NCBI RefSeq assembly: GCF_009931435.1 | Contig: NZ_CP043414.1 | Length of the DNA stretch: 64,000 nucleotides | DNA from: Escherichia coli | Lineage (GTDB): Bacteria; Pseudomonadota; Gammaproteobacteria; Enterobacterales; Enterobacteriaceae | Reading direction: 5' to 3' (one strand) | In this document: positions 3,002-58,459 of the stretch, in pieces | How positions within the stretch are numbered: the first letter of the stretch is position 1 | How the letters are laid out: each line of letters begins with the position of its first letter | Notes under the pieces: model-generated | The model's input: only the letters and a program-made list of their open reading frames with translations | The model's database searches: none | Told to the model about the DNA's origin: nothing | Made by a program: the position numbers and the translations under genes

Positions 3002-5239
3002 GTGGACTGGCTTCTTGATGTTTTTGCAACCTGGCTATATGGCTTAAAAGTAATCGCGATAACGTTAGCGGTCATCATGTTCATCAGCGGGCTGGACGAT
3101 TTTTTTATTGATGTCGTCTACTGGGTACGCCGCATTAAACGCAAGTTGAGTGTTTATCGCCGCTACCCGCGAATGAGTTACCGCGAACTGTATAAACCAG
3201 ATGAAAAACCGTTAGCGATTATGGTTCCGGCGTGGAATGAAACGGGCGTCATCGGCAATATGGCCGAGCTGGCGGCGACCACGCTCGACTATGAAAACTA
3301 TCATATCTTTGTTGGCACCTACCCCAACGACCCCGATACTCAGCGTGATGTTGACGAAGTGTGCGCTCGCTTCCCAAACGTGCATAAGGTAGTCTGCGCT
3401 CGTCCTGGCCCCACCAGCAAAGCCGACTGCCTGAACAACGTGCTGGACGCCATCACCCAGTTTGAGCGTAGCGCCAATTTCGCTTTTGCTGGTTTTATTC
3501 TGCATGACGCCGAAGACGTAATTTCACCGATGGAATTGCGTCTGTTCAACTATCTGGTCGAGCGTAAAGATCTGATTCAGATCCCGGTATACCCATTCGA
3601 ACGCGAATGGACGCACTTCACCAGCATGACTTACATTGATGAGTTTTCAGAACTGCATGGCAAAGATGTTCCGGTGCGTGAAGCCCTCGCCGGACAGGTG
3701 CCCAGCGCAGGCGTCGGTACTTGTTTCAGCCGCCGCGCCGTGACCGCACTGTTAGCTGACGGTGACGGTATTGCTTTCGACGTGCAGAGTCTTACTGAAG
3801 ATTACGACATTGGTTTCCGCCTGAAAGAAAAAGGTATGACGGAAATTTTTGTCCGTTTTCCGGTGGTGGACGAAGCCAAAGAACGCGAGCAGCGTAAATT
3901 TTTACAGCACGCGCGGACGTCAAACATGATCTGCGTGCGCGAATATTTCCCCGATACCTTTTCGACGGCGGTTCGACAAAAGTCTCGCTGGATCATCGGC
4001 ATTGTTTTCCAGGGCTTTAAAACCCATAAATGGACCTCCAGCCTGACACTCAACTACTTTCTCTGGCGCGACCGCAAAGGGGCAATCAGTAACTTTGTCA
4101 GCTTCCTCGCGATGCTGGTGATGATCCAGCTTTTGCTGTTACTGGCGTATGAAAGTTTGTGGCCCGATGCCTGGCATTTCCTTTCTATTTTCAGCGGCAG
4201 CACATGGTTAATGACCCTGCTGTGGCTAAACTTTGGTTTGATGGTTAACCGCATCGTGCAGCGGGTGATTTTTGTCACTGGCTACTACGGTCTGACGCAG
4301 GGGCTGCTATCTGTCCTGCGTCTTTTCTGGGGCAACCTGATTAACTTCATGGCCAACTGGCGCGCGTTAAAACAGGTGCTTCAACACGGCGATCCACGTC
4401 GCGTCGCGTGGGATAAAACAACGCATGACTTCCCCAGCGTCACTGGCGATACCCGCTCGTTGCGCCCGTTAGGTCAAATTCTGCTGGAAAATCAGGTCAT
4501 CACTGAAGAACAACTCGATACGGCACTGCGTAATCGTGTCGAAGGTCTACGCCTGGGCGGTTCAATGCTGATGCAGGGGCTGATTAGCGCCGAACAGCTG
4601 GCACAGGCACTGGCAGAGCAAAACGGCGTGGCGTGGGAGTCCATCGATGCCTGGCAGATCCCTTCTTCGCTGATTGCCGCGATGCCGGCCTCCGTGGCGC
4701 TGCATTATGCGGTGCTACCGCTGCGTCTGGAAAATGATGAGTTAATTGTCGGCAGTGAAGATGGTATTGACCCGGTTTCGCTGGCAGCCCTGACGCGTAA
4801 AGTTGGACGCAAAGTGCGTTACGTCATTGTTCTGCGAGGACAAATTGTCACCGGATTACGTCACTGGTATGCACGTCGACGCGGTCACGATCCACGGGCA
4901 ATGTTGTACAATGCGGTTCAGCATCAGTGGCTCACGGAACAACAGGCCGGTGAAATCTGGCGGCAATATGTGCCGCATCAGTTCCTGTTCGCCGAAATAC
5001 TGACCACGCTCGGTCATATTAATCGTTCAGCAATTAACGTGTTGTTATTGCGCCATGAACGCAGTTCTCTGCCGCTCGGCAAGTTTTTGGTCACCGAAGG
5101 CGTTATCAGCCAGGAAACGTTGGATCGCGTCCTGACAATTCAGCGCGAATTACAAGTTTCGATGCAATCACTATTACTCAAAGCAGGTTTAAACACAGAA
5201 CAGGTTGCGCAACTGGAGTCCGAAAATGAAGGAGAATAA
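3002..5239 (+). CDS. nfrB: Phage N4 adsorption protein B (inner membrane glycosyltransferase family)
   Basis: ORF track 745 aa, alternative (GTG) start; recognised as NfrB; K-12 gene order. Confidence 0.88.
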   Translation: MDWLLDVFATWLYGLKVIAITLAVIMFISGLDDFFIDVVYWVRRIKRKLSVYRRYPRMSYRELYKPDEKPLAIMVPAWNETGVIGNMAELAATTLDYENYHIFVGTYPNDPDTQRDVDEVCARFPNVHKVVCARPGPTSKADCLNNVLDAITQFERSANFAFAGFILHDAEDVISPMELRLFNYLVERKDLIQIPVYPFEREWTHFTSMTYIDEFSELHGKDVPVREALAGQVPSAGVGTCFSRRAVTALLADGDGIAFDVQSLTEDYDIGFRLKEKGMTEIFVRFPVVDEAKEREQRKFLQHARTSNMICVREYFPDTFSTAVRQKSRWIIGIVFQGFKTHKWTSSLTLNYFLWRDRKGAISNFVSFLAMLVMIQLLLLLAYESLWPDAWHFLSIFSGSTWLMTLLWLNFGLMVNRIVQRVIFVTGYYGLTQGLLSVLRLFWGNLINFMANWRALKQVLQHGDPRRVAWDKTTHDFPSVTGDTRSLRPLGQILLENQVITEEQLDTALRNRVEGLRLGGSMLMQGLISAEQLAQALAEQNGVAWESIDAWQIPSSLIAAMPASVALHYAVLPLRLENDELIVGSEDGIDPVSLAALTRKVGRKVRYVIVLRGQIVTGLRHWYARRRGHDPRAMLYNAVQHQWLTEQQAGEIWRQYVPHQFLFAEILTTLGHINRSAINVLLLRHERSSLPLGKFLVTEGVISQETLDRVLTIQRELQVSMQSLLLKAGLNTEQVAQLESENEGE

Positions 5240-8198
5240 CCTTAATCGCGTCATCGGATGGTCTGGTTTACTGCTGACGTCTTTATTGAGTACCAGCGCA
5301 CTCGCAGACAATATCGGCACCAGCGCAGAAGAGCTGGGGCTGAGCGATTATCGCCATTTTGTTATTTATCCCCGTCTCGATAAGGCGCTGAAGGCACAGA
5401 AAAATAACGACGAAGCAACCGCCATCCGCGAATTTGAATATATACACCAGCAGGTGCCGGATAATATTCCGCTGACTTTATACCTTGCGGAAGCCTATCG
5501 CCATTTTGGTCATGATGACCGGGCGCGGCTGTTGCTTGAGGATCAACTGAAACGTCACCCAGGAGATGCCCGACTTGAGCGCAGTCTGGCGGCTATTCCA
5601 GTTGAAGTGAAAAGCGTTACGACTGTTGAAGAACTGCTTGCCCAGCAAAAAGCGTGCGACGCTGCGCCGACCCTGCGTTGTCGCAGTGAAGTCGGGCAGA
5701 ATGCCCTGCGGCTGGCACAATTACCTGTCGCCAGAGCGCAACTGAACGATGCGACGTTTGCTGCATCGCCGGAAGGAAAAACGCTGCGAACCGATCTGCT
5801 GCAACGCGCAATCTACCTGAAACAATGGTCCCAGGCAGATACGCTATACAATGAAGCACGCCAGCAGAACACATTAAGCGCGGCAGAACGCCGTCAGTGG
5901 TTTGACGTGCTTCTTGCCGGGCAGCTGGATGATCGGATCCTGGCGCTGCAATCACAGGGGATCTTCACCGATCCGCAGTCATATATTACTTACGCGACCG
6001 CGCTGGCTTATCGTGGCGAGAAAGCACGCCTCCAGCATTATCTCATTGAAAATAAGCCGCTGTTTACCACGGACGCACAAGAGAAAAGTTGGCTCTATCT
6101 GTTATCTAAATACAGCGCCAACCCCGTTCAGGCGTTGGCGAATTATACGGTACAGTTTGCCGATAACCGCCAGTATGTTGTTGGCGCGACGCTACCGGTG
6201 CTGTTAAAAGAAGGTCAGTACGACGCAGCGCAAAAACTGCTCGCCACCCTCCCCGCCAATGAAATGCTTGAGGAGCGTTATACCGTCAGCGTGGCGACTC
6301 ATAACAAGGCTGAAGCTCTGCGTCTGGCACGATTGCTGTATCAGCAAGAACCGACAAATCTTACCCGCCTGGATCAACTGACCTGGCAACTGATGCAGAA
6401 CGAGCAGTCACGCGAAGCTGCCGATTTGTTGCTGCAACGCTATCCCTTCCAGGGCGATGCGCGCGTCAGCCAGACTTTAATGACGCGACTAGCGTCTCTG
6501 CTGGAAAGTCATCCTTACCTGGCAACTCCGGCGAAGGTGGCGATTTTATCGAAACCCTTACCGCTGGCGGAGCAACGTCAGTGGCAAAGTCAGTTGCCGG
6601 GTATTGCAGATAATTGCCCAGCAATCGTTCGCTTGCTGGGCGATATGTCGCCTTCCTACGATGCCGCCGCCTGGAACCGTCTGGCAAAGTGTTATCGGGA
6701 CACGCTACCCGGTGTGGCGTTGTATGCATGGCTTCAGGCCGAACAACGGCAACCGAACGCCTGGCAACATCGTGCGGTAGCCTATCAGGCGTATCAGGTT
6801 GAGGATTACGCCACCGCACTGGCGGCCTGGCAGAAAATCAGTCTTCACGACATGAGCAATGAGGATCTGCTTGCTGCTGCCAATACCGCCCAGGCGGCAG
6901 GAAATGGTGCGGCTCGCGATCGCTGGCTTCAGCAGGCAGAACAACGTGGGCTGGGAAACAATGCCCTCTACTGGTGGCTGCATGCGCAACGTTACATTCC
7001 TGGTCAGCCGGAACTCGCACTGAACGATCTCACGCGCTCAATCAATATTGCGCCTTCTGCCAACGCTTACGTTGCGCGGGCGACAATTTATCGCCAACGT
7101 CATAATGTCCCGGCGGCGGTGAGTGATTTGCGCGCCGCTCTGGAACTGGAACCGAATAATAGCAACACCCAGGCAGCGCTCGGTTACGCCTTGTGGGATA
7201 GCGGTGATATCGCACAGTCGCGGGAAATGCTCGAACAGGCGCATAAAGGGCTACCGGACGATCCGGCACTTATCCGACAACTGGCCTACGTGAACCAGCG
7301 TCTGGATGATATGCCTGCGACGCAGCACTACGCCCGTCTGGTGATTGATGACATTGATAATCAGGCGCTGATAACCCCACTGACCCCAGAGCAAAATCAG
7401 CAACGCTTCAATTTCCGCCGTCTGCATGAGGAGGTCGGTCGCCGCTGGACGTTCAGTTTCGATTCTTCTATCGGCTTGCGTTCCGGCGCAATGAGTACCG
7501 CTAACAATAATGTTGGCGGCGCAGCGCCAGGGAAAAGCTATCGTAGCTACGGGCAACTGGAAGCCGAGTACCGCATCGGACGCAATATGCTGCTGGAAGG
7601 CGACCTGCTCTCGGTTTACAGCCGTGTATTTGCCGATACCGGAGAAAACGGGGTGATGATGCCGGTGAAAAATCCGATGTCCGGCACCGGTCTGCGCTGG
7701 AAGCCGCTGCGCGATCAGATCTTTTTCCTCGCCGTCGAACAGCAATTGCCGCTGAACGGACAAAACGGCGCATCCGATACCATGCTGCGCGCCAGCGCCT
7801 CATTCTTTAATGGCGGCAAATACAGCGACGAATGGCACCCGAACGGTTCAGGCTGGTTTGCCCAAAACCTGTACCTCGATGCGGCGCAATATGTCCGCCA
7901 GGATATTCAGGCGTGGACGGCAGATTATCGCTTAAGCTGGCATCAGAAGGTGGCGAACGGACAGACTATTGAGCCTTACGCTCACGTTCAGGACAACGGT
8001 TATCGTGATAAAGGCACTCAGGGCGCGCAGCTTGGCGGTGTCGGGGTCCGCTGGAATATCTGGACCGGCGAGACGCACTACGACGCCTGGCCGCACAAAG
8101 TCAGTCTCGGCGTCGAATATCAACATACCTTTAAGGCGATTAATCAACGTAACGGAGAGCGCAACAACGCGTTTCTCACCATTGGAGTGCACTGGTAA
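5226..8198 (+). CDS. nfrA: Phage N4 receptor outer membrane protein NfrA (TPR-containing)
   Basis: ORF track 5205..8198; internal Met (MKENNL) gives 990 aa; signal peptide; overlaps nfrB end. Confidence 0.88.
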   Translation: MKENNLNRVIGWSGLLLTSLLSTSALADNIGTSAEELGLSDYRHFVIYPRLDKALKAQKNNDEATAIREFEYIHQQVPDNIPLTLYLAEAYRHFGHDDRARLLLEDQLKRHPGDARLERSLAAIPVEVKSVTTVEELLAQQKACDAAPTLRCRSEVGQNALRLAQLPVARAQLNDATFAASPEGKTLRTDLLQRAIYLKQWSQADTLYNEARQQNTLSAAERRQWFDVLLAGQLDDRILALQSQGIFTDPQSYITYATALAYRGEKARLQHYLIENKPLFTTDAQEKSWLYLLSKYSANPVQALANYTVQFADNRQYVVGATLPVLLKEGQYDAAQKLLATLPANEMLEERYTVSVATHNKAEALRLARLLYQQEPTNLTRLDQLTWQLMQNEQSREAADLLLQRYPFQGDARVSQTLMTRLASLLESHPYLATPAKVAILSKPLPLAEQRQWQSQLPGIADNCPAIVRLLGDMSPSYDAAAWNRLAKCYRDTLPGVALYAWLQAEQRQPNAWQHRAVAYQAYQVEDYATALAAWQKISLHDMSNEDLLAAANTAQAAGNGAARDRWLQQAEQRGLGNNALYWWLHAQRYIPGQPELALNDLTRSINIAPSANAYVARATIYRQRHNVPAAVSDLRAALELEPNNSNTQAALGYALWDSGDIAQSREMLEQAHKGLPDDPALIRQLAYVNQRLDDMPATQHYARLVIDDIDNQALITPLTPEQNQQRFNFRRLHEEVGRRWTFSFDSSIGLRSGAMSTANNNVGGAAPGKSYRSYGQLEAEYRIGRNMLLEGDLLSVYSRVFADTGENGVMMPVKNPMSGTGLRWKPLRDQIFFLAVEQQLPLNGQNGASDTMLRASASFFNGGKYSDEWHPNGSGWFAQNLYLDAAQYVRQDIQAWTADYRLSWHQKVANGQTIEPYAHVQDNGYRDKGTQGAQLGGVGVRWNIWTGETHYDAWPHKVSLGVEYQHTFKAINQRNGERNNAFLTIGVHW

Positions 8199-30586: not shown

Positions 30587-31612
30587 TTACGCCAGTTGTA
30601 CGGACACGAACGCATCAGGATCAGCCAGCAGCATCAGCGGTGCTGACTGAATCATGGTGAACTCACGCGCCGGATCGCCGGTGGTCACCCAGTTTTTCGG
30701 GTAGCGGGCAGAGGCGTTAATACCTTCGCGCTGTGCGTCCGCATCCTGAATGCAGCCATAGGTGCGCAGACCGCGTGCCTGAGTGTTCCCCAGCACCATC
30801 GTGTTGTCCGGCAGGAAGTTCTTTTTGACGTCGTTTTCCACGTACTGTCCGGAATACACGACGATCGCCGTATCGCCATACATCCCCTTATAGGACACCG
30901 CTTCGCCCAGATCTTTTACCGCTGTCTCCAGCTCGGAATGAGAGCCGCGACGGGTATCCAGCTTCTCCTTGACGGCTTTGAAGGAACGGAACAGCGCCCA
31001 GCCTTTCGGATCAAACACGATGATATTCACCACACCGCTGGCGTTCAGCGCGTAGGCTTCGATATCGTCGGTCGGGTCATACGTGGACTTGTCACGCTTG
31101 CTCCACTCCGTACCGCCGGACTGCGTGATGTTGTTCGCCACACTGCGGCCCATATCCACTTCAACCGGATCGAAGGCTTCACCGGTCATGGTATATTTGC
31201 CCTTAAGCACGGCAGAAACGGCCTGCATCTCTTCGACCTGAGCAATGGCCAGCTCTTCGTCTCGCATGTTCTGCAGAATGATGCGACGGCGGCGGTAAGC
31301 CGGGTCCGCCAGATTCTGTGGATCTTCATCCGGCAGGCGACGCAGGGTCATCTGCGGATTCACCTCATGCTTCGGCTTGACATATCCCGGTGTAAATTCA
31401 GAGGTGGAGCCGCCACGGGAGCGGATAACCTCACCGGAAACAATCGGCGAAACGTACAGCGCCATGTTTACCAGTCCCGGAATTTGTGAGAGATAGACTT
31501 TCTCCGTGGTGAAGGGATAGCTCTCACGGAAAAAGAGACGCAGAAACAGCGGATCAAACTTAAATTTCTTCTCATTTGCCGCCAGCAGCTGGGCGGTTGT
31601 GTACATCGACAT
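30587..31612 (-). CDS. E: Major capsid protein E
   Basis: ORF track 30587..31639; start at MSMYTT gives 341 aa; lambda gpE-like. Confidence 0.9.
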   Translation of the reverse strand: MSMYTTAQLLAANEKKFKFDPLFLRLFFRESYPFTTEKVYLSQIPGLVNMALYVSPIVSGEVIRSRGGSTSEFTPGYVKPKHEVNPQMTLRRLPDEDPQNLADPAYRRRRIILQNMRDEELAIAQVEEMQAVSAVLKGKYTMTGEAFDPVEVDMGRSVANNITQSGGTEWSKRDKSTYDPTDDIEAYALNASGVVNIIVFDPKGWALFRSFKAVKEKLDTRRGSHSELETAVKDLGEAVSYKGMYGDTAIVVYSGQYVENDVKKNFLPDNTMVLGNTQARGLRTYGCIQDADAQREGINASARYPKNWVTTGDPAREFTMIQSAPLMLLADPDAFVSVQLA

Positions 31613-31667
31613 AAAAAAATCCCGTAAAAAAAGCCGCACAGGCGGCCTTTAGTGATGAAGGGTAAGG

Positions 31668-32000
31668 TTAAACGATGCTGATTGCCGTTCCGGCAAACGC
31701 GGTCCGTTTTTTCGTCTCGTCGCTGGCAGCCTCCGGCCAGAGCACATCCTCATAACGGAACGTGCCGGACTTGTAGAACGTCAGCGTGGTGCTGGTCTGG
31801 TCAGCAGCAACCGCCAGAATGCCAACGGCAGCACCGTCGGTGGTGCCATCCCACACAACCAGCTTACGGGTGGAGGTGTCCAGCATCAGCGGGGTCATTG
31901 CAGGCGCTTTCGCACTCAATCCGCCGGGCGCGGTTGCCGTATGTGCCGGGTCACTGTTGCCCAGCGGCTGGTAATGGGTAAAGGTTTCTTTGCTCGTCAT
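31668..32000 (-). CDS. D: Head decoration protein D
   Basis: ORF track 31668..32006; start at MTSKETF gives 110 aa. Confidence 0.9.
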
Positions 32001-32009
32001 AAACATCCC

Positions 32010-33309
32010 TTACACTGGTGTGTTCAGCAAATCGTTAACGGCATCAGATGCCGGGTTACCTGCAGCCAGCGGTGCCGGTGCCCCCTGCATCAGACGATCC
32101 AGCGCAGTGTCACTGCGCGCCTGTGCACTCTGTGGTGCAGCTGCCAGAATGCGGCGGGCCGTTTCCACGGTCATACCGGGGGTTTCGGCCAGCACGCGTG
32201 CCTGTTCTTCGCGTCCGTGAGCCTCCTCACAGTTGAGGATCCCCATAATGCGACTGTTTTCTGCCGCAACCGCTGCGGTGATCTGCGCGTTCACGTCCGG
32301 CTGCGCCGCGCTGGCGTTCTCGCCCTCCGTCGCTTGCACCACGCCAGTAACGTCAGCCTGCGAAGCAGTGGCTGAAACAGTTGTTGATTGAGTCTCTTTG
32401 GTCATTCGCCCTCCTGAGAGACGGGATTTACGTGCATCCAGTGCATCACGCATGACGGTGATCGCATCGGTACTGTTAACAAGTTCATCAGCCAGTCCGG
32501 CATCAATGGCCTCCTGACCGCTGTACACTGCAGCCTCGGTATCCAGCACAGCCTGCACGGACAGGCCGGTATATGCCGACACCTTCTGTGCAAACATCCG
32601 GCGGGTTGCATCCATCCGGGACTGCAGTGTTTCCCGGACATCATCCGGTAGATGGCTGTAGGGGTTGCCATCCACCTTATGGCTGCCGCTGTAAATCAGC
32701 GTGATTTCCACGCCCTGTTTCTCCAGCGCAGCACCGTAATTACTGTGAGCCATCATGACGCCGATGGAGCCTGTCCGGGCGGTCTGCGTGACCAGACGTC
32801 GGGAGGCGGCGCTGGCAAGCAACTGACCTGCACTGCAGTTCATGTCGTTGGCCAGCGCCCATACCGGCTTTATGTCACGCACACGGGCGATGATGTCAGC
32901 GCAGTCAAATGCCCCTGCCACCATCCCGCCTGGCGTATCCATATCGAGCAGAATGCCGTCCACCATCGGGTCGCTGGCAGCCTGTTGCAGACGGGCGATA
33001 ATGCCGTTGTAACCGGTCATCCCCGAATACGGCTGCAGCGCCCGTGTCCGGCTGACCAGCGTGCCGGAAACCGGCAGCACGGCGATGCCGTTCATGACCT
33101 GATAACTGCGGGCCTGTCGTGGTCCGTCATCATCAACGGATAACGCCAGCGCCGCGGGTGCCTCTCCGGCAGTCAGGCTGTCGCCGGATACCGCATCCGT
33201 CAGGCGGCTGATCCCAAGCTGGCCTGCAAGCGCACAAAAGAAAACCCGCGCATAGGCGGGTTCAAGCATCAGCGGCTCATTAAAGGCCATACTGGCAATA
33301 TGCGGGAGA

Positions 33310-33329
<20 letters not shown>
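32010..33329 (-). CDS. C: Capsid assembly protease C (scaffold Nu3 read from an internal in-frame start)
   Basis: ORF track 32010..33464; 439-aa product if initiated at a Val codon (probable GTG) at about 33329, overlapping the B stop; ClpP-like fold. Confidence 0.8.
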
Positions 33330-37010
<3,681 letters not shown>

Positions 37011-37036
<26 letters not shown>

Positions 37037-57005: not shown

Positions 57006-57348
57006 GGCCTGTCAGTTTCTTAAGATATCCAGACCAACCGCCACCAACTGGATACGAACAGGCCGCCTACAGGCAACACGTAAAGATCCAACCAAGCCAA
57101 AATCTCCTTACCTCACAACACGGCAAGCCTGCATTGCGGCGCTTCAGTCTCCGCTGCATACTGTCCAGGTGAGCGCGGGTGATGGCATAACAGAGGAAAG
57201 AAAATGTCACTCTTCCGCAGAAATGAAATATGGTATGCCTCGTATTCGCTCCCGGGCGGGAAACGAATTAAGGAATCTCTTGGCACAAAGGACAAGCGGC
57301 AAGCTCAGGAGTTGCACGACAAGCGAAAAGCAGAACTCTGGCGAGTAG
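56977..57348 (+). CDS. xis: Putative excisionase (HTH, AlpA/Xis-like N-terminus); 3' end uncertain, overlaps int
   Basis: ORF track 56947..57348; internal Met MESYSL..; N-terminal HTH; position upstream of int. Confidence 0.5.
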
Positions 57349-58367
57349 AAAAGCTAGGGGATTTACCTGATGTCACTTTTGAAGAGGCCTGCCTAAGATG
57401 GCTTGAGGAAAAAGCTGATAAAAAATCTCTCGATTCAGATAAAAGCCGGATTGAGTTCTGGCTTGAACATTTTGAGGGTATAAGGCTTAAAGATATCTCG
57501 GAGGCAAAGATTTACTCTGCTGTAAGCAGAATGCATAACAGAAAGACGAAAGAAATATGGAAACAGAAAGTTCAGGCCGCCATCAGGAAAGGTAAAGAAC
57601 TGCCTGTTTATGAACCAAAGCCAGTATCAACTCAGACAAAGGCAAAGCATCTTGCCATGATAAAGGCCATTCTCCGTGCTGCAGAACGCGACTGGAAGTG
57701 GCTGGAAAAAGCGCCTGTCATCAAGATACCAGCGGTCAGAAACAAGCGAGTCAGATGGCTGGAAAAGGAGGAAGCAAAACGCCTTATTGATGAGTGCCCC
57801 GAACCACTGAAATCTGTCGTCAAGTTTGCGCTGGCAACTGGTCTGAGAAAGTCGAACATCATAAATCTGGAATGGCAACAAATCGACATGCAGCGACGAG
57901 TTGCCTGGGTGAATCCAGAAGAGAGCAAATCAAACCGCGCCATTGGTGTGGCGCTGAACGATACCGCCTGTAAAGTGTTGCGTGATCAAATAGGCAAGCA
58001 TCACAAATGGGTGTTTGTACATACCAAGGCGGCTAAGCGAGCAGATGGAACATCAACGCCTGCGGTCAGGAAGATGCGCATCGACAGCAAGACATCATGG
58101 CTATCAGCTTGTCGTCGTGCAGGAATTGAAGATTTCCGTTTCCATGACCTCAGACACACCTGGGCAAGCTGGCTGATTCAGTCAGGCGTCCCATTATCAG
58201 TGCTTCAGGAAATGGGCGGATGGGAGTCCATAGAAATGGTTCGTAGGTATGCTCACCTTGCGCCTAATCATTTGACAGAGCATGCGAGGAAAATAGACGA
58301 CATTTTTGGTGATAATGTCCCAAATATGTCCCACTCTGAAATTATGGAGGATATAAAGAAGGCGTAA
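57204..58367 (+). CDS. intD: Tyrosine integrase (DLP12 IntD-like)
   Basis: ORF track 387 aa; C-terminal catalytic domain; adjacent to tRNA-Arg. Confidence 0.9.
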
Positions 58368-58382
58368 CTGATTGAATTGTAA

Positions 58383-58459
58383 TGGCGCGCCCTGCAGGAT
58401 TCGAACCTGCGGCCCACGACTTAGAAGGTCGTTGCTCTATCCAACTGAGCTAAGGGCGC
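58383..58459 (-). tRNA. argU: tRNA-Arg (anticodon UCU, argU)
   Basis: 77-nt sequence with CCA end matching argU by recall; its 3' 45 nt is the prophage attachment repeat. Confidence 0.88.

Follow-up and report, generated by a model that had tools for sequence, protein, structure and literature searches.

Gene C and its surroundings in the prophage

At which codon does the capsid protease gene C start in the lambda-type prophage carried by the window, the 64,000-nt stretch of Escherichia coli DNA analyzed here? The frame of the gene stays open into the preceding portal gene, and a GTG at 33464 in this open upstream part leads the ORF lister to report a product of 484 aa. The first-pass annotation had proposed a 439-aa frame beginning at a Val-type codon and gave no strand. 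The feature is located on the minus strand and the codon, read directly in the sequence at 33329–33327, is GTG. This GTG is the ordinary start of gene C, already known and part of the canonical lambda annotation. From the comparisons described below, the region 33329..32010 on the minus strand is very probably gene C of a lambda-type prophage translated from the GTG at 33329. The frame comprises 439 sense codons and ends with a TAA stop at 32012–32010 (minus strand). The features at both ends of the gene are as follows.

32010–33329, minus strand: gene C, capsid assembly (prohead) protease of the S49 peptidase family, 439 aa plus stop
33327–33329, minus strand: GTG initiation codon of C, corresponding to lambda 4418–4420; GTG in 81/81 related IMG/VR loci, aligned codon ATG in phi80
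33334–33342, minus strand: Shine–Dalgarno element GAGGAGGAG, GGAGG core 6 nt before the GTG, within the last codons of portal gene B
33310–34911, minus strand: portal gene B, 533 aa, Pfam Phage_portal_2 324 bits, length and position as lambda B
33310–33329, minus strand: B/C overlap of 20 nt, also annotated in lambda (4418..4437) and in RefSeq E. coli
33330–33464, minus strand: upstream continuation of the C frame, 45 codons, coding for B only; its first start-type codon is the GTG at 33464
31668–32000, minus strand: head decoration gene D, 110 aa, Pfam HDPD 79.4 bits, starting 9 nt after the C stop

The deduced C protein was identical to lambda gpC at 429 of 439 positions (98%) with no gaps, the ten substitutions being placed mostly in linkers (residues 42–65 and 329–332). 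It matched Pfam Peptidase_S49 (PF01343) over residues 150–297 with 149.7 bits (cut-off 24.9) and PHROG 53 'head maturation protease' with E = 7e-186, so that the full-length similarity to gpC required of a lambda-type gene C was seen both in the alignment and in the PHROG 53 match. The position of the gene between the lambda-family portal and the decoration and major capsid genes is also the one that a lambda-type gene C requires. The exact 439-aa protein, its first residue given as Met, is in public databases on at least 1000 contigs, the 90%-identity cluster holding it has 11,600 members and the head module was matched in 3449 of 5426 complete E. coli genomes.

Lambda gpC is reported to be proteolytic on procapsid proteins and autoproteolytic, as Medina et al. 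(2010) are cited in PMC12617516, and published papers describe it as an essential protease processing head proteins and itself. The protease and the scaffold share one gene, according to a paper citing Shaw and Murialdo (1980). The product of the window gene would be an S49-family serine protease engaged in procapsid maturation, the C-terminal third of which also forms the scaffold domain made separately as Nu3.

A full-length lambdoid prophage occupies the window from about 13000 to 58460. It is inserted in the E. coli chromosome at the argU tRNA-Arg(TCT)/DLP12 attachment site, a location in which the window gene C differs from that of lambda, and is flanked by the nfrAB/cus and sfm fimbrial genes. 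The attachment end is marked by two features.

58383–58459, minus strand: tRNA-Arg(TCT), argU
57204–58367, plus strand: integrase, adjoining the tRNA

The head and tail genes of the prophage are lambda-like and lie on the minus strand. The order and the lengths of the ORFs around C match lambda A-W-B-C-D-E, the scaffold gene being nested in frame in the same way (A-W-B-C/Nu3-D-E), and the C-to-D spacing is also that of lambda (5737 to 5747). The early region was 99.9% identical to prophages present in a few RefSeq genomes, whereas the head genes showed at most 99.4% identity to any complete genome; these different identities suggest a mosaic prophage.

The GTG start codon and its ribosome-binding site

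The 13 bases preceding the GTG of C are GAGGAGGAGAAGA, which consist of the GAGGAGGAG element followed by AAGA. The GGAGGAGAAG that the first-pass annotation had noticed before the start is contained in GAGGAGGAGAAGA, one base from the GTG. The whole element falls in portal codons encoding Glu-Glu-Glu-Lys, and the OM418625 record labels it ribosome_binding_site. The overlap with the portal stop, likewise claimed earlier, was found as described, B ending at 33310, which is 20 nt inside C.

The strength of candidate ribosome-binding sites was scored as the pairing energy between the 3' end of the 16S rRNA and the 20 nt before each candidate start. The in-frame candidates scored as follows.

GTG at 33329: -12.0 kcal/mol
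Five upstream in-frame candidates: -2.4 to -5.7 kcal/mol
Met14: +1.6 kcal/mol
Met21: -1.9 kcal/mol

The anti-SD duplex of -12.0 kcal/mol calculated for the GTG at 33329 was reached by just 0.1% of the 6043 ATG, GTG and TTG triplets present on both strands of the window. A Shine–Dalgarno sequence at functional spacing, as expected of a genuine GTG start, thus precedes the codon. The RNA around the C start did not fold beyond shuffled controls (z = +1.68); as it is not unusually folded, it is consistent with an accessible initiation site.

In both lambda records (NC_001416 and J02459), gene C is annotated as 4418..5737 with 439 aa and GTG as the codon at 4418, which is the same codon and bears out the proposal that the protease gene starts at GTG. 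Around the start, 248 of 251 aligned bases matched between the window and lambda, the differences being located at -143, -44 and +38, and no base differed from lambda from the ribosome-binding site through the GTG to codon 12 of C. Lambda gene C (NP_040584/AAA96537) and the window gene therefore have the same length (439 aa), begin with the same GTG behind the same ribosome-binding site and overlap B by the same 20 nt, the start and its site occupying the lambda position expected of a lambda-type gene C. The NCBI pipeline annotated a RefSeq E. coli genome in the same manner, with a 1320-nt CDS named 'S49 family peptidase', the first 20 nt of which lie within the portal gene. The public annotations of C are not mutually independent since most of them descend from the 1982 lambda annotation.

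With respect to annotation, the 484-aa mechanical ORF, which begins at the upstream GTG, should be cut back to the lambda-type gene of 439 aa, and the first residue of C should be given as Met and not Val. Because the head module is widespread, the correct C start touches many annotations, yet the public pipelines already have it right and the significance beyond correct annotation is very small.

Sequence variation around the start

The scan of viral contigs (IMG/VR) yielded only loci 97–100% identical to the window, which inform on polymorphism and not on divergence; diverged C homologues were drawn from the phage GenBank collection instead. The GTG was kept in every one of the 81 scorable related viral contigs. 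A segment of 45 nt, from -12 to +32 (33297–33341, minus strand), contained zero variants in 84 close sequences, with the flanks varying every few bases. Such invariance is consistent with a triple constraint, from the codons of B, those of C and the ribosome-binding site.

On the two sides of the start, the variants were silent in different frames. Among the 51 distinct variants found in the 300 nt upstream of the GTG, 40 were synonymous in the B frame and six in the C frame, whereas 39 of 66 variants in the 280 nt that follow the overlap were synonymous in the C frame. This change from B-frame-silent to C-frame-silent variants indicates that the C frame comes under selection near the GTG. Polymorphism cannot separate codon 1 from codon 14 as only two variants lie between them.

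Within the 9-nt GAGGAGGAG element, the sole variant was a G>T change of the first base, at -13, present in two loci. In these two IMG/VR prophage contigs (L006 and L010), the change at locus positions 2487–2489, corresponding to window 33341–33343, introduces a TAG into portal gene B, 11 codons short of the usual stop; the GGAGG core of the C ribosome-binding element stays intact. Nonsense changes in B were also seen once each at -109 and -106, in two other loci.

Homologues of gene C in diverged phages

The phi80 protease (gene 5, gpC, CBH95056) is 82% identical to the window protein and its gene also overlaps the portal gene and is preceded by a GAGGAGGAG-type ribosome-binding site. It starts at the identical aligned codon, where ATG replaces GTG, and its frame is closed by a stop 8 codons upstream. 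The phi80 nested scaffold gene 6 is annotated as 137 aa, from an internal ATG corresponding to window 32405. The more distant PhiR12_2* homologue (60% identical) begins with GTG, with an in-frame stop 12 codons upstream. In this protein, Met14 and Met21 are replaced by Ala and Leu, the RNL-HI segment is kept and the first ATG (codon 34) follows the conserved FNEPLLLEPAYARVFF block.

In Vibrio, Aeromonas, Yersinia and Marinobacter phages, the homologous protein begins at an ATG placed 8–13 residues before a conserved F-x-x-P-L motif, just as the window protein does at its GTG; the Rhizobium and Burkholderia homologues depart from this pattern. A conserved ATG elsewhere, which the first-pass annotation had named as evidence that would count against the GTG, was looked for in the alignment of relatives and was not found: the sole ATG start among close relatives (phi80) is the same aligned codon, and the ATG starts of distant relatives lie within about 4 codons of it. 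Thus, the start position is kept in homologues and the frame upstream of it is free of selection, as expected of a genuine GTG start.

In Vibrio phage HY01 (MT366580; L086, locus 904–1059), the deposited CDS of the C homologue takes an internal ATG as its start. In frame and 52 codons upstream lies the coding sequence of the conserved N-terminal segment MNNLQHLISNTFNRPLALEAGYARVFF, which has an ATG start and overlaps the portal end, so the deposited gene is probably annotated too short.

Alternative readings of the locus

A start of C further upstream, over the portal C-terminus, might be considered since the frame is stop-free for 55 codons, up to 33494, i.e., 10 codons past the GTG at 33464. 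This stretch holds three GTG and two TTG codons (offsets -45, -38, -33, -27 and -13) and no ATG, in line with the earlier remark that the frame extends upstream through non-ATG codons only. The ribosome-binding sites of these five candidates are weak, however, and of the 27 distinct variants found between -135 and -1, 19 were synonymous in the B frame against four in the C frame. Moreover, the in-frame stops lying 8 and 12 codons before the phi80 and PhiR12_2* starts make such an extension impossible in those two phages, and an upstream start is annotated in none of the lambda records, RefSeq E. coli genomes or public protein entries compared. An upstream start, for example the 484-aa version from 33464, has next to no likelihood and the extension was dropped on the strength of the ribosome-binding sites, the substitution pattern and the phi80 and PhiR12_2* stops. 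Initiation at a downstream ATG, Met14 (33290) or Met21 (33269), with the GTG and its ribosome-binding site being incidental, might be considered too: ATG is the commoner start codon, both Met codons are in frame and nearby, and polymorphism is no bar, only two variants being present in codons 1–13. A downstream start is nevertheless very unlikely. A ribosome-binding site is absent before either codon, residues 4–13 are identical in phi80 despite synonymous changes in the DNA, and in PhiR12_2*, which lacks both Met residues, the first ATG comes only after the FNEPLLLEPAYARVFF block. The Vibrio, Aeromonas, Yersinia and Marinobacter homologues also start before the F-x-x-P-L motif. The two Met starts were rejected because of the absent ribosome-binding sites, the conservation of residues 4–13 and the PhiR12_2* protein having neither Met.

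The locus being a prophage in a bacterial chromosome, gene C could also be part of a decayed remnant, in which case the question of its start would be moot. Against this, the 439-codon frame is intact and its product is 98% identical to the functional lambda gpC, with the aligned catalytic Ser166 kept. The neighboring genes A, W, B, D and E have full lambda lengths, and the downstream variants in the C frame are enriched for synonymous changes. Decay of the gene is, on these grounds, very improbable, and an intact gene C beginning at the GTG at 33329 is the reading retained below.

Relation to bacterial SppA proteases

A search of solved structures with the C protein returned bacterial SppA relatives only, a structure of lambda gpC, from which the N-terminus might be seen, not being found among them. 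Residues 81–298 aligned with SppA (PDB 3RST, 4KWB and 3BF0) with E = 1e-21, indicating the same S49 protease fold family. Ser166 (NCSAG) was aligned to the Ser of the MAASGG motif in 3RST, the SppA nucleophile, so C has both the PF01343 match above the gathering score and the aligned nucleophile Ser expected of an S49 member.

The protein differs from SppA in several respects. It scored below the NCBIfam SppA equivalog cut-offs (119 vs 155 bits) and it bears the phage scaffold domain at its C-terminus. At the position of the catalytic Lys of B. subtilis SppA (IKSG), it has Tyr (IYSG). With the general-base Lys missing from the SppA position in the window protein, C would need another base, possibly His217 or Lys218 located nearby. 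The Tyr at this position is equally present in lambda gpC, and membership in the gene C family is unaffected.

The nested scaffold gene Nu3

An internal in-frame scaffold start, expected in a lambda-type gene C, has two candidate ATG codons in the window.

32010–32615, minus strand: lambda reference version of Nu3, 201 aa, with its ATG at 32615–32613, equal to lambda 5132..5737, in the C frame and ending with its stop
32010–32405, minus strand: likelier Nu3, 131 aa (MTKETQ...), ATG at 32405, which is codon 309 of C, with AGGAGGG at 32409–32415

The public records of Nu3 give three different starts (201, 131 and 233 aa), the third being annotated in the lambda imm21 record with 233 aa. The ribosome-binding site of the ATG at 32615 is weak (-3.8 kcal/mol), whereas that of the ATG at 32405 is the strongest inside C (-10.8 kcal/mol). 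The latter codon is located just past the end of the S49 domain (near residue 297), and phi80 (the annotated 137-aa gene 6), D2 and PhiR12_2* likewise have an internal ATG with a strong site in this place. PHROGs contains scaffold families of both 201 and 131 positions, and PHROG 8399 'head scaffolding protein', with 131 positions, matches the 131-aa product end to end. Judging by these sequence features, the ATG at 32405 is the probable Nu3 start, giving 131 aa, in preference to the 201-aa reference annotation from 32615. Purified gpNu3 was reportedly sequenced at its N-terminus in the early 1990s and is said to correspond to the short product. The evidence favoring the 131-aa product is a mildly useful by-product of the analysis.

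Proposed mode of initiation and its possible role

Initiator fMet-tRNA reads a GTG start codon, so the protein begins with Met. By this general rule of bacterial translation, the GTG of C would give an N-terminal Met and not Val, and the initiator Met would probably be removed as Thr follows it. Ribosomes finishing B could be handed straight to the C start, i.e., the two genes would be translationally coupled. The GTG, a weaker codon for which the strong ribosome-binding site compensates, may help to keep the copy number of the protease low relative to the scaffold, and the scaffold part of the C frame would be made separately and more abundantly from the internal ATG.

It is conceivable, although we hold it to be rather doubtful, that the GTG, the very strong ribosome-binding site buried in B and the 20-nt overlap together form a fixed coupling device, which sets the portal-to-protease ratio. 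Such a device, if true, would account for the invariant segment from -12 to +32 and for the portal of this lineage ending with Glu-Glu-Glu-Lys. Production of Nu3 from the ATG at 32405 as a 131-aa protein, in place of the 201-aa start, would be a minor corollary.

Start codons of other head genes

Two other genes of the head operon were of interest with respect to their starts. The terminase large-subunit gene A (37036..35111, minus strand, 641 aa) begins with a GTG at 37034–37036, as in lambda (711), and its start overlaps the end of Nu1, with a moderate ribosome-binding site of -5.7 kcal/mol. The GTG of C is thus not the sole non-ATG start in the head operon. The major capsid gene E was listed as a mechanical ORF of 350 aa from a GTG (30587–31639, minus strand). 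The lambda-equivalent start of E is an ATG located 9 codons downstream, at window 31612, which gives a 341-aa protein beginning with MSMYTTAQLL, and the ORF list over-extends this gene as well.
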